Positions 1-19,955 of a DNA stretch of 20,000 nucleotides are shown piece by piece. The DNA comes from an uncultured virus (IMG/VR IMGVR_UViG_3300010344_001075) (taxonomy: Duplodnaviria; Heunggongvirae; Uroviricota; Caudoviricetes), in the IMG/VR virus record IMGVR_UViG_3300010344_001075; one strand, given 5' to 3'. The position numbers and the translations under genes were made by a program. How positions within the stretch are numbered: the first letter of the stretch is position 1; each line of letters starts with the position of its first letter. Under the pieces are notes generated by a model that made no database searches, was not told the DNA's origin, and saw nothing but the letters and a program-made list of their open reading frames with translations.

Positions 1-1112
1 CCTTGTACAGGATAGTTGATGCAGTCATTCTTCCCCATAACACCGTGGCAGCGGAAGCCTGTGTACATATCAATATATCCATACTTTTGATATGTTTTCC
101 ACCAACGATCTTTCCATGCGGCATAGTCAGCAAAACGGACACCCCAGAAGTCTGACTCAATCTTTTTCACATGGTTGATAAAGGTATCAAGAGATTTGAT
201 TCCCTTTTCAATAAAGTGATCTGACAAATGGGCTCCGTCAATTTCTATTCCTTGTCCAGGTTTCCATTTGGTAGGAGGCAACTTACCCCAATTGCAAGCC
301 ATGTACGTAGCACAGTTCTTGTAATAGTCACCGTAGAATTCCGGGAAAACAAAACCATTCTTTGCCGCTTGTCTCAGTACCTTGTGGGCTGGATTAGATT
401 TGTCAAACGAATCTAACATAAAGATTTGGACGGCCATATCTCTATGCATATCCCCTTGCGTAATGTCATATATCAATTGTTGATCATGGTTGTAACATGC
501 CGCTATTCTTACCTCAAGTTGACTGTAATCAACTTCCATTAACTGATGTCCTGGACGGGGGTACAATGCTTTGCGAACAATCTGCATAGATTCCTCATCC
601 CGTTTTGGTATGTTTTGAAAGTTAGGGTGGTCGGAGCTTGAGCGAAACGTACGAACAAGATGTAAGTTGAAGAACGGATGTATGTATCCTTTTACCTGTT
701 CTCTTGAAAAGGCTTCAAGGTATGTGTCCCGTACCTTTTTCAACTTACGCATGTCTAACAGTATGTCTAACTCAGGTATGTTTAACTGGCGTAAGGTTTC
801 CTCATCGGTAGAACCTTGTCCAGACTCCGTTTCCTTTTCAACTTCCAACTTCTTTGTCTTGTACAGGAAGTGGGCAAGTTGTGCGTTGGAGTTGATGTTT
901 ACCCTGCCACCTCGAGAATGTTCCCAATGCCGATAGAAATCTGAGGCCTTAAACTTCCGTTCAAGCCTGTTTATTTTGGAAGTTAGATTGGCTTTACGTT
1001 GTTCAAGGTACTCTAAGTCAACACGAAGCCCTTGTTGTTCGGCTCTAGCAATGGCAAGAATACCATTATGCATCAAACGGTACGCGGCTTCACTATGTGG
1101 GCTGGTATCCAT
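1..1112 (-). CDS. polA: Family A DNA polymerase, stand-alone polymerase domain (3' end runs off the window)
   Basis: Not in the ORF track. Manual translation from ATG at 1112 is open to the window edge: MDTSPHSEAAYRLMHNGILAIARAEQQGLRVD...NINSNAQL...STDEETL...HPFFNLHLVRTFRSSSDHPNFQNIP, motif A DYSQLEVR, DMH, motif B RQAAKNGFVFPEFYG, and ...INYPVQG at the edge. Confidence 0.95.
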   Translation of the reverse strand, partial: MDTSPHSEAAYRLMHNGILAIARAEQQGLRVDLEYLEQRKANLTSKINRLERKFKASDFYRHWEHSRGGRVNINSNAQLAHFLYKTKKLEVEKETESGQGSTDEETLRQLNIPELDILLDMRKLKKVRDTYLEAFSREQVKGYIHPFFNLHLVRTFRSSSDHPNFQNIPKRDEESMQIVRKALYPRPGHQLMEVDYSQLEVRIAACYNHDQQLIYDITQGDMHRDMAVQIFMLDSFDKSNPAHKVLRQAAKNGFVFPEFYGDYYKNCATYMACNWGKLPPTKWKPGQGIEIDGAHLSDHFIEKGIKSLDTFINHVKKIESDFWGVRFADYAAWKDRWWKTYQKYGYIDMYTGFRCHGVMGKNDCINYPVQ

Positions 1113-1423
1113 TCTTTAAATCGTTTTTCAAATGTTCGTACTATTTCATCTGCTTTGTTACAAAACACAGGATCACTCATTTCCTTACGGGCTCTAATAA
1201 GTTTGAGCTCATGCACGATGTTATTGTAATTCTCCTCGGTGATCCCACATTTGTTTACATAATCCCCGAACATGCACAACCTGGCATAGATAGGGCTTCC
1301 GTACACTTTATGCACTCTTTTAGCTTCGTTCTTCCCATGCCACCACAGGACAACTATGGTAAAAAGAAACAAGCCAATTAAGACTACAACCTCTAAAGGT
1401 TTCATTGTTGGTAATGCTTCCAT
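1073..1423 (-). CDS. Small hypothetical protein with N-terminal transmembrane helix
   Basis: 116-aa ORF that fills the gap between the exonuclease and polymerase genes. It has a hydrophobic stretch VVVLIGLFLFTIVVLWW followed by a basic segment, and starts 2 nt after the upstream stop. Confidence 0.65.
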   Translation of the reverse strand: MEALPTMKPLEVVVLIGLFLFTIVVLWWHGKNEAKRVHKVYGSPIYARLCMFGDYVNKCGITEENYNNIVHELKLIRARKEMSDPVFCNKADEIVRTFEKRFKEWIPAHIVKPRTV

Positions 1424-1425
1424 GA

Positions 1426-2643
1426 TTAGAAAGGTAATAAGATTTGACTTTGTTGTAACATTGCTAACCGATATTCATATATCGTATCGAGGGCACAATA
1501 CGTTAGGAGTTTTTCAGTTCCCCCTGGTACTGTAAGAAGTTCAAGTACACGATTAAGTCCATTGCCATCACTATTATCAACGGCATGTAAATATGGAGAG
1601 ATCTCACTTGCGTAATCAACGACACCAAGTTGTACGTAGGTTTGAAACTTAAGACTTGTTATCCCTGGACGGTTGTCAAGAATGTGTGCGGCTTGCATAC
1701 TATCCCAATACCAGTTGACGACGGGTTGTCTTAATCGTACGACACTCCAAGTATCCTCAAATTTCATGTTGTGTGCCATCTTTCCTACTTTGGGATTGGC
1801 TAACAAGTCAAGGAACGGTTGTCGTTCGGCCTTTGTTTCTGGCATCAAAAACGCATACGTATGATCTGGGGAATCAGCAACTGCCGCACAAACGACACGA
1901 TGCCCTGCGGCATGTGGCTTAAGACCCGTTGTCTCATAGTCGATCGCAACAGGACCTTTTATACGTTTCAATACGGATAAGTCTTCAATTATCTCAATCT
2001 CCGGCTCATTGTATTTCGGCAGAGCACCAAGTGCAAAGGCCTGTTTCAAATCCCTTTTCCATATGGCTTGTACGTCAGGTTGTTCTGAGACTCGTTCAAT
2101 GTAACTCGGATGAAATGTAGGACAGAGCCAAGCATTAAAATCTAAATCAGGTATTGTAAACCCCCGCCACTTACTTATCGTCCCCAGATCTTTCATCCAA
2201 CGATGTCCTATTATGCTGTATAGTGCCGTATTTCCGAGGATAATAATTTTATGTGGGCAATACTCCTCTATTGTCCGAAGTATTGACCTACGGCAGCATT
2301 CCGCCTCAAAATTAGAAGGTGGGCGGTTAGTTCCCTTAAGATCTACAGGCCTACATAAAACCGCGTTGATGTTAACACAATCTTCAAACAAATCAATACC
2401 TAATGAAGAGTATGTTTTTTGGAGAAGCTTGCCAACTTTACCCTGCCAGGGTTTTCCTGTACGATCCTCTGCCTCTCCCGGAGCCTCACCTATGTTCAGT
2501 ATCTTCTTTTTGAAATTACCGAAAGGTTTCATTTGTGGGGATTCACAGGTTCGGTGTAGGCCGCAAGTTACACAGGTGCCAACCTTACCCGCCGGTCGTG
2601 TAATTGACTCGACCTCTTTCTTTGTGAAGAACCCCTCTATCAT
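1426..2643 (-). CDS. Uracil-DNA glycosylase (family 4-like, Fe-S) fused to PolA-type 3'-5' exonuclease
   Basis: UDG motifs CVTCGL, IGEAPGEAEDRTGKPWQG, NAVLCRP, ECC and TFHPSY. Exonuclease motifs Exo I IDYETTGL, Exo II HNMKFED, WDSMQAAHILD and Exo III YCALD. This resembles the N-terminal half of SPO1-type polymerases. Confidence 0.92.
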   Translation of the reverse strand: MIEGFFTKKEVESITRPAGKVGTCVTCGLHRTCESPQMKPFGNFKKKILNIGEAPGEAEDRTGKPWQGKVGKLLQKTYSSLGIDLFEDCVNINAVLCRPVDLKGTNRPPSNFEAECCRRSILRTIEEYCPHKIIILGNTALYSIIGHRWMKDLGTISKWRGFTIPDLDFNAWLCPTFHPSYIERVSEQPDVQAIWKRDLKQAFALGALPKYNEPEIEIIEDLSVLKRIKGPVAIDYETTGLKPHAAGHRVVCAAVADSPDHTYAFLMPETKAERQPFLDLLANPKVGKMAHNMKFEDTWSVVRLRQPVVNWYWDSMQAAHILDNRPGITSLKFQTYVQLGVVDYASEISPYLHAVDNSDGNGLNRVLELLTVPGGTEKLLTYCALDTIYEYRLAMLQQSQILLPF

Positions 2644-6668: not shown

Positions 6669-7039
6669 ACCCCGGTGCTCATTTGGAGTAAACCGTAGAA
6701 CTCAATACGACAGGCGGTGTGATTCATAAAGTCTCCGTGAAGAGAAGATATAAAGCACTTGTCAACATAGAACACTACGGCGACACCTTCTGATTTCTCA
6801 AAGGTGTCATTGAGGTGTTCCGTCAACGCTCCTGCCATGTTACGCAATTTCTGGATATCGTTTACCCAGCCATCAGTTTTGTTTGCCTTCATAAAGGCTA
6901 CAACCACATTGTCAAGTGTGGTGAGATCATCATCGGTAATCATACCGACGTAAATAGGGAAACCCCAATGCGTGTACTTCCGTATGAGCAGGGGGCTGGC
7001 ATGTTTGTCTACCAGTTTTGTAAAGGTGTCATTCTCCAT
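6665..7039 (-). CDS. Degenerate GTP cyclohydrolase I (FolE)-like T-fold protein, no catalytic Zn ligands
   Basis: The C-terminus EGVAVV...SSLHGDF...CRIEFYGLL parallels the FolE in this window (EGAACI...SSLTGSF...ARAELLQLI). It lacks CEHH and HMC. ATG at 7039 is preferred over GTG at 7045. Confidence 0.5.
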   Translation of the reverse strand: MENDTFTKLVDKHASPLLIRKYTHWGFPIYVGMITDDDLTTLDNVVVAFMKANKTDGWVNDIQKLRNMAGALTEHLNDTFEKSEGVAVVFYVDKCFISSLHGDFMNHTACRIEFYGLLQMSTGV

Positions 7040-7568
7040 AACCACTAAATATTTCGTCTTTGTTAATTTGATAAGCTTCTGCTAATTTCTCTATGGTTTC
7101 TTTTTGCATACCAAGAAGAGGGGCTTCAAGTTTGATTGGCCTACTGCCGTTTATTTGTAAGAGTTTATTCATTTGGTAAACCCACTCCTGTGAACAATCT
7201 GGGAATATGTTTTCACGATCGGCATAATTGGCTCCGTACCAGATTAAATCAATGCCTTGACTCTCTGCCAATGAAGCCGCGTATGCCGTGAATAACATAT
7301 TTCGGGCGGGCACGTGCCACTGAGATACACCCTCATACCGTTTATTCTGCCCTGTCAAGGTGGAAGAACTGAGTGTAGGTATTGTAACATACACAAATTT
7401 GACAGCCCGTTTAGAACATTGATCCATGGCAAACTCTGTCTCTTTTTCATGACGTTGTCCGTAATTGAAAATAAGACAGGTTATCTCATAACCCAAGTCA
7501 AGTGCCAGGCACAATAAAACAGTACTGTCTAATCCACCACTATAGAGTAGAAGAAGTTTCTTTTTCAT
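7029..7568 (-). CDS. queC: 7-cyano-7-deazaguanine synthase QueC, lacking C-terminal Zn-binding segment
   Basis: PP-loop YSGGLDST, FNYGQRH, VPARNMLF, FPDC and APL...K. It ends at FSGYGE* where canonical QueC continues SCY...CGxCxxC. The likely start is ATG 7568, preceded by GAAAGGAAACAAC. Confidence 0.9.
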   Translation of the reverse strand: MKKKLLLLYSGGLDSTVLLCLALDLGYEITCLIFNYGQRHEKETEFAMDQCSKRAVKFVYVTIPTLSSSTLTGQNKRYEGVSQWHVPARNMLFTAYAASLAESQGIDLIWYGANYADRENIFPDCSQEWVYQMNKLLQINGSRPIKLEAPLLGMQKETIEKLAEAYQINKDEIFSGYGE

Positions 7569-7812
7569 GTTGTTTCCTTTCTCTGATTTCAAGTAATAAT
7601 CTATCAATTTCAAGATGTCGTATGCGGCCGAATCTAAAAGCCGATCCAGTCAAATAGTTAAGGACTCTCCGAACCCTGAGTGGATCGGAGAAGTCCTGTA
7701 AATATGTTCTCAATATTTGGCAGTTGGCTGCGGGTGTATGCTTCCACGTACCAAGGAACGAGCGACGTATTATCTGCCACTCAGGATCGTTTACAATTTC
7801 TTGTATTTTCAT
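7540..7812 (-). CDS. Small basic hypothetical protein (90 aa)
   Basis: MKIQEIVNDPEWQIIRRSFLGTWK...RVLNYLTGSAFRFGRIRH. Start at 7812 forms an ATGA overlap with the methyltransferase stop. Confidence 0.75.
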   Translation of the reverse strand: MKIQEIVNDPEWQIIRRSFLGTWKHTPAANCQILRTYLQDFSDPLRVRRVLNYLTGSAFRFGRIRHLEIDRLLLEIRERKQHEKETSSTL

Positions 7813-8309
7813 CTTCGTATGGCCTCGAACTGTATTTCGATTTTGGAGGGACGCGATACTTGAACAACTTCGAACAGATCTTCTCTGTCTAAGTACCATA
7901 CACCCACTTCATCAAACCAAATGGAACGGTGTAATGTTTCATCAGGTGTGCTAAAGAGTTTGAGACAGGTGATGTCCAATGTTGAGAAGTCCCCGTGGCT
8001 TGTCCTGTCAGCCAATTCATCCAACAGTTTGATAAAGTCCGGTGTGATAATTATCAACCGACCACCCGGTTTTAAGACACTCCATATTTTGAATAAGAGT
8101 GTGGTTATCTCCGCATGAGTAAGGTGCTCAAACAAGTGTTCAGCCCGTACCTCATCCACCGATTCTGCGGCAAATAAGGAAGGCAGTTCCTGTACATCAG
8201 CCTCAATGAAATTATGCCCTTTATATTCTTCTTCCGGCAATACCATAAGGTCAATGTTGATGTAGTCAGGCAACAGTTTATTGCCACAACCAAGATTCAG
8301 TTTTTTCAT
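7809..8309 (-). CDS. Class I SAM-dependent methyltransferase (Methyltransf_11-like)
   Basis: Motif I KLNLGCG, YINID, ADVQELP...ESVDEV, HLFEHL and VLKPGGRLIIITPD. Confidence 0.88.
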   Translation of the reverse strand: MKKLNLGCGNKLLPDYINIDLMVLPEEEYKGHNFIEADVQELPSLFAAESVDEVRAEHLFEHLTHAEITTLLFKIWSVLKPGGRLIIITPDFIKLLDELADRTSHGDFSTLDITCLKLFSTPDETLHRSIWFDEVGVWYLDREDLFEVVQVSRPSKIEIQFEAIRR

Positions 8310-9334
8310 TCTACTCTTCGTTTAGACCATTTTGATTTATCAATGTGTTCTCCGGCATGCGAGGTAAACACCTTCTCCCCCATGGCAGGATCTTTTTCTT
8401 TCCAATAGTGATGTATAAAAGGACAGACCCAAATACAACCAGGGCAGTCCATCGCATCAAGACGAACAGCCTCCTTCCATTCCTCTGTCTTTTCAGGCAA
8501 ATCAAAAATGGTAAATTTTGGTGTTCTTGTGCCCTTACGGTAACCACAGACTCGTAGAGTACCATCGGCATCAATTGTAGGACCATCATAGGGGTTACCC
8601 TGACAATGCCAACCCATCCCTATCAATTTGGGATTGTCAACGATTGCCTGTAGGTATTCAGGGTTGTATATTAGTAAATTTGATTCCTCAAGAAGAGACT
8701 TGAAAACAGAAGTCACAACGATATAATCTTGTTCTTTAAACAAGTAATCTTTCATGTCTTCCTCCGGTGGAAAGAAATCATACTGATGATCTTTACTCCA
8801 ATGGATAAGATTAATGCCAGCGAAAATGCCTAACTTTGACAGCTGCTGTACAATCAAACCAATGTAGGCAATGTTCCTGCGGTGTACCGTAATTGTACCT
8901 TGCATGTCAACTTCCGGGTGTAACTTTTTCACTCGGTAGAAGGCGTCCCAGGCATCCGCCGCTTTTTCAATTGAGGCATCCCGTACCTGACTCCTGGCTC
9001 CCATAGGATAATCAACACCACAAGATAAGTTGTCAATAACTTTATCTCCAAGTAGAATCTGCTCATTCTTACTAAACAGTTTCTTTGGTGCAGTGGTGTA
9101 CATGGCATATGGCACTTTGTTTGCCTTGAATATAGGAACCAACTTTTCACCCAAGAGCCAAGGTTCGTTTCCTAAGATAAGGTTGAAAGTTACACCGATA
9201 TCTTTCAATATATCAAATGCCTCAATCCACTGTTCCTCTGTCAATTCCGGTCCGGTATCCTTTCCTTCACGAATAGAACAATAGGCACAGTCTCTTGGAC
9301 ATCTTCGCGTCATATACGTTACGGCAAGTTTCAT
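8306..9334 (-). CDS. Radical SAM protein with C-terminal SPASM/twitch-like auxiliary cluster region
   Basis: [11 protein letters not shown] (CX3CX2C), LGNEPWL, and C-terminal HCQGN...[11 protein letters not shown]...CPGCIWVC. Confidence 0.9.
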
Positions 9335-9888
9335 GGTAAAGCAATCAGTTGTAACAATTCTGCTCTAGCTGTGGCATCATCCAAGAAGCTGCCCGTCAAT
9401 GACGAAGTTGTCATAGTTGACTGCTGTTTGTTTACTCCACGCATCCTCATACACATATGAGTGGCCTCAATGATACAGGCAGCACCCTCTGGTTGTAGAT
9501 ATTCCATTAACGCCTCAGTAACTTGTTGACCGATACGTTCCTGAATTTGTAATCTACGGGCAAAGACATCAACAAGTCGAGCCAACTTGGACAAGCCTAT
9601 TACCTTCTTTCCTGGTATATAGGCAACATGAGCTTTTCCAAAAAATGGAAGCATGTGGTGTTCACACATAGAATAGAGCTCAATGTTCTTACAAATGACA
9701 ATTTGACTGTACCCATTCGTGTCTACGAAGGTTGTGAACAATGATGCCACGTCCTGTTTGTAACCGGCATACAGTTCACTCCAAGACCTTACAACACGTT
9801 TGGGGGTGTCGTATAATCCCTCTCGCGAAGGATCCTCCCCCAAACGGTGTAAGATTTCTTTGAGCAGGTCTTCACTACTCAATCCCAT
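9331..9888 (-). CDS. folE: GTP cyclohydrolase I
   Basis: [45 protein letters not shown] and HMCMRMRGV. The likely start is ATG 9888. Confidence 0.97.
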
Positions 9889-10534
9889 TCTCGGTAAGTT
9901 TGAGGTTACCAAGCCAGTTCGGATCACGCTTGATCCTGTACTTGATGTGGTTGTTTACCAGTCCCTGGTTGGCAGACATCTTCAGCCCACGGGCTTTGAT
10001 TTCCTTTTCAAGCTTGGGCAGGATCTCATCCCAGGCACCTCCGGCAAGTATCACCTCATCGGTGAAAGCGGCGAAAGAGCCTTCATGCTTGAACTTCGGT
10101 TTTGCATCGCCTGCGACCTTGACGTTGTTTTTCTTGGCAGGGGGTGCCGGTGGGGCTTTCTTGGCAGGTGCTTTCTTGGCAGGTAGAGCTTCCTCTTCAG
10201 GATCTTCCTCCTCTTCAGGATCTTCCTCCTCTTCAGGATCTTCCTCCTCCTCTTCCTCTTCAGGTTCTTCTTTCTCCTTCACAGGAGCCGGTTTCTTTTT
10301 ACCAGTTGCCTTGGGCTTGTCTTTGTATTCTTCGATGATTTCAAGAGTTTCCTCAGTGAACTCATCATCAGGGGTAATGAGACCTGGTTCGTTAACGGTA
10401 TCTTTGATGATAGCTTCCAGCTCGGGAGCCTTCATCTTATTCGTGATGACAATGTCATCCTTGTTCTCGTCAACAAGACCAAGTGTTTCAACCAGTTCTT
10501 TCGCCGCTGATCTCAGCTCTTCAATTTTACGCAT
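9875..10534 (-). CDS. Hypothetical protein with acidic and Lys/Pro/Ala-rich low-complexity linker
   Basis: 219 aa with a central (EEEEDP)x3 and PAKKA repeats between two apparently folded ends. It has its own upstream promoter-like motif. Confidence 0.8.
10191..10244. repeat. Coding tandem repeat, 3 x 18 bp (tcctcttcaggatcttcc)
   Basis: Three perfect adjacent copies at 10191, 10209 and 10227. A nearby 15-bp repeat gctttcttggcaggt occurs twice at 10155-10184. Confidence 0.95.
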
Positions 10535-10577
10535 AGTGTTTCAAATGTTTTAAATTAGACATAAAAGAGTGTTCGCA

Positions 10578-10592
10578 ATATTATACGAAAAA
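10578..10592 (-). promoter_or_regulatory. Putative phage-specific promoter motif TTTTTCGTATAATAT
   Basis: Intergenic, about 45 nt upstream of the ATG at 10534. An identical 15-mer is at 14362-14376 and the core TTCGTATAA is at 16003-16011. Confidence 0.7.
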
Positions 10593-10608
10593 GTTTTCTA
10601 TTTCTATT

Positions 10609-11375
10609 TCAAATACCTATTTTCTTATCCCACAAGACAATGTGTTCACGTGTACGGAACAGTACACCTTCCCGGATTGCTAATTGAACAACCATTTCTG
10701 TATTTGCATCTACTTCAGTCTTGGTTGCCCCTTCAGGCATAAGAATAACTTGAGACCGATCAATGTATCGTGTTTTTAAAAACATTGAATCAATCTCATA
10801 CCAATCCTCAGGTTTGGTAATAACAAACTTGAACCAAGAATTACGGTAACTGGCAGCGTCTACAATGACTAAAGGATTATATCGCTTCTGGTACGGATTC
10901 CCGCTGCTATCAAGTTTTGGCGAATTATTCCAACAATCAATGTACTGAGACATAACGCTGGTCGGGAATAAACTACACTCATTTTCAATTTCTGTGTAGG
11001 GTTTGAAGTGAAAACGCTTTTGAAACTGATACAAAAATTCTACCAAATGATCTTGTTGCAGTAATGGACTACCTCCGGTAAGGACAGATGTTGTCCATTT
11101 TTTAGACTTGGTATGATTAGACTATCCGCCATCATTGAAAATAGTTCATCAAACGTGTACGGATTACCTTGTTTCCAAACTTCAGTGGTGTCACACCATA
11201 CGCAATCCAATGAGCAACCTTGTAGGCGTAAGAAAGCCGAAGGGTGTCCAAGGTTTATCCCTTCTCCTTGTATGGAGTCATAAAAGAACTCAGAAACACG
11301 AAGGTAATTTTCATGCTCTGGCCTTTTTCGCTTTTCAATAGGAAAAGCCCGTATCAATTGTTTTGCTTCAATCAT
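10609..11375 (-). pseudogene. queE: 7-carboxy-7-deazaguanine synthase QueE interrupted by a single frameshift (real mutation, recoding or sequencing error)
   Basis: The 5' part has SIQGEG, FLRLQGCSLDCVWCDT. At about 11086 the -1 frame continues VLTGGSPLLQQDHLVEFLY...NSPKL...FKFVI...LMPEG...REHIVLW. Adding one base gives a protein of about 255 aa. Confidence 0.9.
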
Positions 11376-11725
11376 GGTTCGTACCGGGCTGAGGTTTTTG
11401 GTGTCTCACTTACTTCCACTGCACATACTTCGGGATGCATTGCATGAAAAATATTGAACAGATCCCAAGCCATGTTTTCAGCGGTGGGATTGTACTGTAA
11501 GAAATCATTGAGATGTTGATGATCAAACACGTCATCAATAAACTTTTTGATGTCGTCCAATTCCCGGTAATCAACGATAAAACCTGTGTCGTTAAGTTCT
11601 TCCGCACAAAGCTCCACAGTCACCACATAATTGTGGCCGTGTACCCTGCTGCACGGGTGAGTCTCAGGCCGGCAATTAAGTTGGTGGCTTGCTGAGAAAT
11701 GAAATTCTTTTCTAATTTTGTACAT
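11372..11725 (-). CDS. queD: 6-carboxy-5,6,7,8-tetrahydropterin synthase QueD
   Basis: FSASHQL, CSRVHGHNY, GFIVDY, FDHQHLND, PTAENMA and VEVSETP. Confidence 0.96.
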   Translation of the reverse strand: MYKIRKEFHFSASHQLNCRPETHPCSRVHGHNYVVTVELCAEELNDTGFIVDYRELDDIKKFIDDVFDHQHLNDFLQYNPTAENMAWDLFNIFHAMHPEVCAVEVSETPKTSARYEP

Positions 11726-19872: not shown

Positions 19873-19903
19873 ATCTCTTTGGTTTTTAGTTAACGAATGA
19901 GCG

Positions 19904-19952
19904 TAGCAGTCTTTCGACTGGCCCGACTCTCACGGGCTGTACCTTGCTGCTA
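19904..19952 (-). other. Intergenic multi-hairpin RNA structure
   Basis: The minus strand has GCCCG-TGAGAGT-CGGGC abutting CAGTC-GAAA-GACTG, enclosed by TAGCAG/CTGCTA complementarity. Confidence 0.5.
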
Positions 19953-19955
19953 ACT

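Follow-up and report, generated by a model that had tools for sequence, protein, structure and literature searches.

A clade of phage QueC homologs that lacks the zinc-binding motif and is paired with a T-fold protein in a 7-deazaguanine gene module

A 20,000-nucleotide stretch of DNA from an uncultured tailed virus (Caudoviricetes; IMG/VR record IMGVR_UViG_3300010344_001075), which we call the window, encodes a short homolog of QueC that ends where the zinc-binding cysteine motif of this family is normally found; we refer to this protein as QueCs. The truncation is an evolved, clade-wide feature of single origin and not a lesion, and the gene overlaps that of a small T-fold protein with which QueCs probably forms a functional, and probably a physical, pair, judging from gene overlap and natural fusions. 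QueC-family amidoligases and phage 7-deazaguanine pathways are already known; what is new here is the clade of zinc-less QueC proteins, its overlap or fusion with a T-fold protein, and the zinc-bearing QueC proteins that are able to replace it. We give roughly even chances to the reading that QueCs is an active, zinc-free amidoligase that activates 7-carboxy-7-deazaguanine (CDG) and, together with its T-fold partner, serves a phage pathway that would place a sugar-tailored 7-deazaguanine in DNA.

A QueC clade without the zinc-binding motif

The QueCs open reading frame (ORF) starts at the ATG at position 7568, with AAAGGAAACAAC just before it, and stops at the TGA at 7031-7029, so that the product terminates in EIFSGYGE. 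A first-pass annotation, made from the sequence alone, had noted that FSGYGE occupies the site of the canonical SCY...CGxCxSC and that even the first Cys is replaced by Gly; this was borne out by an alignment against zinc-bearing homologs, where SGY plus two residues stand in place of SCY...C..C..C and none of the four Cys is left. The match to the QueC family of Pfam (PF06508; 8.9e-38, 130.3 bits against a cut-off of 22) pairs residues 5-177 of QueCs with profile positions 2-184 of 210, and therefore the last ~26 positions, which include the Cys motif, are missing. In agreement with this, the QueC chains 2pg3 (232 residues) and 3bl5 (219 residues) of the PDB, which match QueCs with E-values of 5e-18 and 3e-15, respectively, align to it only through residues 177 and 171. 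When we translated past the TGA, the read-through peptide, which begins HLYKTGRQTCQPPAH, contained no CxxC, as had also been claimed. Read-through or recoding of the stop codon was rejected, as no Cys motif lies beyond the TGA and the relatives have short, varied tails. We found no riboswitch in an Rfam scan of the 240-nt gap upstream of QueCs, and promoter and terminator scans gave background-level results only.

A homolog search in a collection of 5.8 billion proteins showed that the 26 nearest relatives of QueCs (50-96% identity, 179-194 residues) all finish at SGY(G/E/x) and are likewise without the zinc motif; the isolate-specific lesion for which the first-pass annotation had allowed is thus not what we observed. 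Beyond these 26, at identities of 41% or less, the matches are proteins with the Cys motif (P0027-P0120, mostly 208-234 residues; a sample was aligned and all were checked by pattern). A scan of IMG/VR seeded with QueCs yielded 51 viral loci, all with an intact QueCs ORF, and in 49 of them the stop lies 0-8 residues beyond [S/T]GY. The two exceptions have an acidic tail (L041) and a different, Cys-rich tail (L046). A lesion or a sequencing artefact is ruled out by the conservation of this terminus in 26/26 proteins and 49/51 loci.

The exceptional L046 protein (9692-10597, with the same gene in L125) is itself a member of the zinc-less clade and has acquired a new ~20-residue Cys/His-rich tail past SGY, which may be a re-invented metal site.

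In a tree of 160 rows the 65 zinc-less and 95 zinc-bearing sequences are split by one branch, with a value of 97 in the Shimodaira-Hasegawa-like approximate likelihood ratio test (SH-aLRT), and so the loss of zinc amounts to one change; an 81-row quick tree gave the zinc-less clade a support of 100 and a long stem (1.12). The suggestion of the first-pass annotation that the truncation was evolved rather than accidental is upheld by this single change, by the clade-wide occurrence of the short form and by the conservation of the overlapping gene. The clade extends over many phage lineages with genomes of ~50 to 277 kb, and so far it has been seen only in viral contigs and in metagenome-derived protein records: two clade-specific peptide patterns scanned against 185,579 species genomes gave eight pattern matches, none of them a QueCs relative, 50,697 deposited phage records contained no relative above 36% identity, and a megablast search with 8.6 kb of the cluster returned no cultured-phage match.

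Retention of the catalytic signature

Within the zinc-less clade 44 alignment columns are invariant over 27 sequences with identities down to 50%. These include the PP-loop, Y36, Q38 and E43, L71, V86-P-x-R89-N90, F122-P-D-C125, K156 and S175-G-Y177, while H40 is conserved in at least 90%. QueCs itself has the Y36-G-Q-R-H-E-K-E43 and V86-P-A-R-N90 motifs and K156, and in the set of 36 aligned sequences S10, G11, G12 and S15 of its PP-loop (S10-G-G-L-D-S15) are invariant and D14 is found in at least 90%. The YPDC of QueC is FPDC in QueCs, with F122 invariant throughout the clade. Y177 of S175-G176-Y177, the counterpart of E. coli Y189, is invariant in all 36 sequences; residues were mapped to E. 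coli QueC by motif, and the E. coli protein lies outside our alignment. The same motifs are used to define QueC in the main text of Libby et al. 2026 (PMC13329287), where alanine mutants of Y35, R99, Y131 and Y189 are reported as inactive and Y131F as partly active, and in the available text of the Cap9 preprint the zinc site is described as structural. With the catalytic motifs kept and the zinc site a structural one, the machinery for ATP and CDG would be intact in QueCs and the knuckle alone gone. A further set of residues is invariant and specific to the clade (W110, Y115, R118, Q127, E128 and W129).

QueCs thus shares with canonical QueC the fold family, the PP-loop, YxQxHxxE, VPxRN, (Y/F)PDC, the Lys and the Tyr of the SCY triplet, as well as the pathway neighbors FolE, QueD and QueE. 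It differs in lacking C(x)8CxxCxxC and finishing two residues past the Tyr, in being ~40 residues shorter, with a five-residue deletion and a one-residue insertion near FPDC, and in being accompanied by a gene for a T-fold partner in 50 of the 51 records.

An overlapping gene encodes a T-fold protein

The ORF downstream of QueCs (orf126) has two candidate starts, GTG 7045 and ATG 7039, which put its overlap with the QueCs stop at 17 or 11 nt, respectively. The first-pass annotation had seen this overlap, and its reading stands to that extent, but it missed the key partner, which is the T-fold protein that the overlapping gene encodes. The T-fold gene lies within 10 kb of QueCs in 48/51 loci and usually overlaps the QueCs stop; a whole-record search brought the count to 50/51, with the sole record lacking it (L033) being a fragment estimated as 19% complete.

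The T-fold protein belongs to a small family. A profile search of 1.84 billion representatives recovered just 105 members, in which the domain is nearly always C-terminal. It had no match in Pfam or NCBIfam, nor in the PDB by sequence profile; the ESM Atlas gave scores below 0.9 only, BFVD gave phage GTP cyclohydrolases only (E-values of 2.8e-3 or worse), and tblastn found no match in the 50,697 deposited phage records. Two of the 26 longest members (P0168 and P0160) are natural fusions in which a QueC domain ending in ...FSGYG or ...FSGYT is followed by a linker and the T-fold domain. A word search for longer fused forms of QueCs found none at an E-value of 1e-20 or better, which is weak evidence. 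Five others of the 26 (P0140, P0142, P0144, P0155 and P0157) have an N-terminal nucleoside 2-deoxyribosyltransferase-like or SLOG-like domain, with P0140 alone scoring above the Pfam cut-off for it and the other four below.

We modeled the T-fold protein with AlphaFold (predicted local distance difference test, pLDDT, 82.8; predicted template modeling score, pTM, 0.75) and obtained a beta-beta-alpha-alpha-beta-beta arrangement (E17-22, E29-35, H42-53, H62-79, E83-92 and E95-102). The top structural match was GTP cyclohydrolase I 4uqf (VIA Z 11.2 over 100 residues, 2.4 A), followed by further matches to GTP cyclohydrolase I (Z 10.3), QueF (8.9), dihydroneopterin aldolases (~8.8) and QueF-L (8.3), and rows 1-17 were T-fold enzymes throughout. 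By profile comparison the match to phage FolE is weak and in register (E-value 0.0011, probability 20%, 125 columns), with SSLxGxF...RxE in common. A relationship to QueD or DpdL was rejected, the hhalign probability being 0.2%. The beta-beta-alpha-alpha-beta-beta(-alpha) fold is thus shared with QueF, QueF-L and GTP cyclohydrolase I; however, the FolE zinc ligands and the CEHH-type catalytic residues are absent, there is apparently no Cys at the thioimide position of QueF, and among 34 T-fold sequences no Cys is invariant, C110 being present in ~90% and located elsewhere in the fold than that position. For these reasons the protein is not a cyclohydrolase, and there is nothing obvious to make it an enzyme of the QueF type. 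Purines and pterins are the ligands of T-fold proteins. Based on the gene overlap and the fusions, we infer that the T-fold protein acts with QueCs, or directly after it, on the free base.

Zinc-bearing QueC proteins in the same module

A second scan seeded with the T-fold protein gave 76 loci, many of them on contigs that the QueCs scan had also found, and 68 of these had a QueC-family ORF: 63 of the short type and five with zinc motifs. In three of the five, L104 (4214-4960), L106 (9265-9996) and L119 (4404-5021), the slot of QueCs is taken by a QueC of 205-248 residues with SCY...C..C..C intact, whose gene overlaps that of the T-fold protein. In L061, whose T-fold protein is 81% identical to that of the window, nothing fills the slot between the radical S-adenosylmethionine (SAM) gene and the T-fold gene; a 227-residue zinc-bearing QueC is encoded between the acidic protein and FolE (6988-7671); L097 has a similar arrangement (7644-8369). 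The module of T-fold protein, deacetylase, glycosyltransferase (GT) and the DNA transglycosylase DpdA can therefore run without a zinc-less QueC. The first-pass annotation had tied the loss of zinc to the genes for the GT and the PIG-L-like deacetylase, and this part of its reading does not hold. The distribution indicates that the T-fold partner is older than, or independent of, the zinc loss, and that the pathway is not defined by the loss of zinc.

The converse is found in L033, which has QueD, QueE, an unrelated 100-residue ORF, QueCs, FolE and DpdA, and in whose 15 kb we found no T-fold, GT or deacetylase gene. Taken together, the zinc-bearing replacements and L033 favor a generic QueC role for QueCs, i.e., one in which ADG (7-amido-7-deazaguanine) or preQ0 would be formed with ammonia.

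The sugar enzymes of the module

Two sugar genes follow the T-fold gene, and the labels that the first-pass annotation had given them, GT and PIG-L, hold as remote memberships. In the deacetylase, P9-H10-x-D12-D13-E14 and H76-P77-x-H79 are invariant over 26 sequences, and we take these residues to be ligands as in MshB. PF02585 was touched by 25/26 deacetylase homologs, all under the cut-off (best E-value 1.2e-6), and a profile comparison matched the LmbE-family diacetylchitobiose deacetylases 3we7 and 8bgn (~1e-4). A model of the GT (pLDDT 89.8) had the two-Rossmann GT-B fold with a GT4-like C-terminal domain, and PF00534 was touched by 20/26 members of this family. The best Foldseek rows were BshA (3.7e-9), with MshA among them; a wider structural search (VIA, matches over ~290 residues) was headed by sucrose-phosphate synthase (Z 22.7), with a glucosyltransferase at 22.2 and BshA at 21.5. 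Some 15 GT4 enzymes fell within 2-3 Z units, including a tetrahydrobiopterin glucosyltransferase (20.3), and T4 alpha-glucosyltransferase scored 15.0. As so many GT4 enzymes score so closely, the structural matches do not single out a donor or an acceptor for the GT.

GT4 and LmbE enzymes form the known pairs MshA/MshB, BshA/BshB and PIG-A/PIG-L. The phage module resembles these in that a GT4-like transferase adjoins an LmbE-like deacetylase; in contrast, the phage proteins fall well short of them in length and have diverged so far that they miss the Pfam cut-offs, and their product is expected in DNA. The first-pass annotation had proposed to check whether zinc-less QueC proteins co-occur with GT and PIG-L genes, and they do: both lie within 10 kb of QueCs in 41/51 loci, and a whole-record search of the ten remaining loci found both in six more (L011, L043, L044, L046, L047 and L031), for a total of 47/51. 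The four records in which this search did not find the sugar genes are fragments estimated to be 5-48% complete.

A proposed pathway and its alternatives

For the activity of QueCs, its physical binding to the T-fold protein, the nucleophile, and the sugar and its attachment site, we infer the following scheme. QueCs would adenylate the CDG carboxyl and hand it to a nitrogen nucleophile, most likely ammonia, to give ADG and perhaps the nitrile preQ0. The T-fold protein would bind the base or convert it further, and the product would pass to DpdA where the phage is of mid size and, in large phages, to a deoxyribosyltransferase-like domain. The GT would add an N-acetylhexosamine, from which the deacetylase would unmask the amine, leaving a cationic, hexosamine-bearing 7-deazaguanine in the phage DNA. 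The zinc knuckle was lost once, inside this phage lineage, and a partner that had been bound beforehand is probably what made the loss tolerable.

Several points weigh against this scheme. The series of GT4 enzyme, LmbE deacetylase and ATP-dependent ligase is recurrent and underlies the synthesis of mycothiol and bacillithiol, which favors the ligation of an amine. QueCs scores 127.1 bits against the NCBIfam equivalog TIGR00364, below its cut-off of 150.3. The long stem of the clade and its specific invariant residues could reflect an altered substrate and not a surface for contact with the partner. The five zinc-bearing QueC proteins of the module are divergent and group weakly with QueC* of the Campylobacter phage CP21 (SH-aLRT 84, long branches); they need not be ordinary preQ0 synthases, and this weakens the argument from replacement. 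L033 is the fragment noted above. In addition, zinc is stated to be required for QueC function in the main text of Libby et al. 2026 (PMC13329287), and our literature search found no characterized zinc-free QueC.

In the first alternative QueCs and the T-fold protein would act together as a CDG:amine ligase, with the GT4 and LmbE enzymes supplying the amine of glucosamine, so that N-glucosaminyl 7-carboxamide-7-deazaguanine would be found in the DNA; we regard this as possible but doubtful. Ligation to another amine had been raised in the first-pass annotation, and the part of that idea that stands is that the QueC family offers precedents. According to the main text of Libby et al. 2026 (PMC13329287), Cap9 of type IV CBASS and QatC of QatABCD are QueC-family ligases that join CDG to protein N-termini. 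In the available text of a preprint (bioRxiv 10.64898/2026.04.15.718813), the amine for RoyL of roseomycin is lysine, ornithine or D-Ala-D-Ala, and the amine pocket lies in YxQxHxxE. All three activate CDG by the adenylation chemistry that is also predicted for QueCs, and Cap9 is likewise small (~185 residues). The part that does not stand is the connection with zinc: Libby et al. 2026 report that Cap9 and QatC keep the zinc motif while ligating amines, and therefore the nucleophile cannot be read from the presence or absence of zinc. The gene neighbors differ as well, being CD-NTase and Cap10 or QatA, QatB and QatD in those systems and FolE, QueD, QueE, DpdA and replication genes around QueCs; RoyL is encoded in actinomycete gene clusters and QueCs in a phage DNA-modification operon. 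An identification of QueCs with Cap9 itself is not supported, given the zinc motif and gene context of Cap9.

In the phages themselves, the presence of GT and deacetylase genes in 47/51 records, the rank of BshA at the head of the Foldseek rows with MshA near it, the long stem with its extra invariant residues, and the recurrent gene series just described all speak for an amine ligase. Nevertheless, such a route would need a glycosyl acceptor of no known identity, the module also runs with zinc-bearing QueC homologs, and L033 has QueCs and DpdA with neither GT nor deacetylase in its fragment. The structural likeness to BshA and MshA is tied with that to many other GT4 enzymes (Z 20-23 over ~15 rows), and the residues of the amine pocket are as in the ammonia-using QueC, these being identical in QueC and RoyL. 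There is also another way to a sugar on the base: the available text of the same preprint describes HuiG of the huimycin tailoring enzymes HuiG/HuiC as placing N-acetylglucosamine directly on a preQ0-derived base, i.e., a GT acting on a 7-deazapurine without a ligase step. A bolder form of the ligase reading would make the zinc-less QueC and the T-fold protein one two-part enzyme, fused in some phages, that couples adenylated CDG to the glucosamine amine in the style of mycothiol synthesis, producing an amide-linked amino sugar at guanine position 7 that DpdA or the fused deoxyribosyltransferase-like domain would deliver; we consider this improbable.

The second alternative, a special case of the pathway proposed above, is that QueCs is an ADG synthase only, with no nitrile step and with the amide as the handle for tailoring; a stop at the amide was the other suggestion of the first-pass annotation. 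Its model is QueC* of Campylobacter phages that have dADG, the deoxynucleoside of ADG, in their DNA, for which the main text of Cui, Hutinet et al. 2023 (PMC10516641) proposes ADG synthase activity; QueC* and QueCs are both phage QueC homologs in a 7-deazaguanine DNA pathway with a suspected product other than preQ0. The weak grouping of the module's zinc-bearing QueC proteins with CP21 QueC* is in keeping with this, and an amide nitrogen is conceivable as a glycosyl acceptor where a nitrile is not. However, CP21 QueC* (219 residues) has the full SCY...C..C..C, so that loss of zinc is no mark of QueC*, and the available text of the Cap9 preprint has one adenylation site serving both QueC steps, all residues of which are kept in QueCs. 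No sequence feature tells one step from two, and we rate a strict stop at the amide as unlikely. That QueCs is QueC* itself is ruled out by the intact zinc motif of the CP21 protein, which is 28% identical to QueCs by tblastn and falls outside the zinc-less clade on a long branch of the quick tree.

Finally, it is very improbable that QueCs is catalytically dead, either as a decaying gene or as a subunit with no more than a structural role for the T-fold protein, since 44 invariant columns in 27 sequences, among them those of the entire PP-loop and of the motifs for the substrate, and an intact ORF in 51/51 loci from many phage lineages with genomes of ~50 to 277 kb stand against the reported zinc requirement of QueC (PMC13329287, main text) and the score under the NCBIfam equivalog cut-off.

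Gene neighborhood and genome architectures

The window is a phage replication module in which all genes are on the minus strand, with a split family-B polymerase, a clamp, helicases and a primase, and the 7-deazaguanine cluster is embedded in it (Table 1).

Table 1. Genes of the 7-deazaguanine cluster in the window (positions are those of the 20,000-nucleotide stretch)
Feature	Position	Strand	Remarks
DpdA-type DNA 7-deazaguanine transglycosylase, 345 aa	4209..5246	minus	phrog_887, E 1.4e-38
GT-B fold, GT4-like glycosyltransferase, 322 aa	5243..6211	minus	structural model and PF00534 matches
LmbE/PIG-L-like metal-dependent de-N-acetylase, 151 aa	6213..6668	minus	PHxDDE and HPxH motifs invariant
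orf126, T-fold protein, 124-126 aa	6665..7045	minus	start 7039 or 7045; overlaps the QueCs stop; 18 invariant residues, mostly polar
QueCs, zinc-less QueC homolog, 179 aa	7029..7568	minus	PP-loop SGGLDS, YGQRHEKE, VPARN, FPDC, K156, C-terminal SGY; 0/4 zinc Cys
SAM-dependent methyltransferase (Methyltransf_11), accessory	7809..8309	minus	in 9/51 loci only
Second radical SAM enzyme, not QueE	8306..9334	minus	best match PqqE-like, weak; directly upstream of QueCs in 24/51 loci
FolE, GTP cyclohydrolase I	9331..9927	minus	E 2.1e-73
Acidic protein, 219 aa	9875-10534	minus	between QueE and FolE; long Glu/Pro/Asp run and Lys/Ala/Pro-rich stretch
QueE	10609..11375	minus	two ORFs in the window by a 1-nt deletion (TT to T), break near 11040-11080
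QueD, 6-carboxytetrahydropterin synthase	11372..11725	minus	profile match

Twenty of the 51 loci, on records of ~14-73 kb that include some fragments, share one gene order: helicase, QueD, QueE, acidic protein, FolE, radical SAM enzyme, in some cases the methyltransferase, QueCs, T-fold protein, deacetylase, GT, DpdA, clamp and polymerase. The module lies between replication genes, the acidic protein keeps its position in 29/51 loci, and DpdA is present in 26/51. QueE is a single ORF of 255 residues in the near-identical loci L002 and L006, and its split in the window reflects a mistake in the assembly or else a genuine pseudogene; in the latter case the phage would be unable to make CDG itself.

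Among the matches listed of 225 phage records, tblastn with the window DpdA gave identities of 28-39% with at most 63% of the query covered, and over its N-terminal ~62% the protein has ~31% identity with DpdA of cultured phages.

The C-terminal third of the window DpdA (residues ~220-345) has no match among the DpdA genes of deposited phages. This region could fit the enzyme to a bulkier base.

The architecture is different in large phages (100-277 kb, one of them complete with terminal repeats), where the four genes of the module lie dispersed across several kb in the vicinity of the polymerase. QueD (4/4 records) and a QueE-like gene (5/5) are found elsewhere in these records, and FolE was found in none of the four examined for it (G002-G005, i.e., loci L029, L034, L043 and L046); these phages presumably take dihydroneopterin triphosphate from the host. 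DpdA was found in none of five large-phage records, either with a DpdA profile, for which there was no positive control, or with PF01702, which also misses the DpdA of the window. In L027-L029 and L045 the T-fold protein has the deoxyribosyltransferase/SLOG-like N-terminal domain described above (~12121-12942 in L027), and this fusion hints at a nucleotide-level route by which the modified base would be placed onto deoxyribose.

Two further observations concern other parts of the window. The family-B DNA polymerase (3-2643, minus strand) consists of two ORFs, of ~405 and ~465 residues, in the window and in all mid-size relatives, so that the split is conserved; the halves are ~300 nt apart in the window and its closest relatives, with a 116-residue ORF in the gap in the window, and they abut or overlap in many others. 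In addition, an intergenic, full-length match to the twister-sister ribozyme (RF02681) is present at 19887-19954 on the minus strand (37.9 bits against a gathering threshold of 34, 2.9e-5).

Significance

Our full-text literature search, which took in Cui 2023 and Libby 2026 without their supplements, turned up nothing on a QueC clade that lacks zinc, on its T-fold partner or on 7-deazaguanine glycosylated in DNA, and the main text of Libby et al. 2026 (PMC13329287), in which ten PF06508 clusters were analyzed, does not mention a zinc-less clade. QueC is treated as a zinc enzyme, the motif being one of its two hallmarks, and a functional zinc-less clade would make the knuckle dispensable in the presence of a partner. 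QueCs would thereby offer a natural minimal scaffold for the study of CDG activation, and the T-fold protein, as a new small family tied to QueC, points to an unrecognized step or subunit in 7-deazaguanine chemistry. The pathway can be tested in E. coli with a few cloned genes. The predicted amino-sugar-bearing 7-deazaguanine would be an addition to the known set of eight derivatives, and for the phages that make it, it would likely be an anti-restriction device.

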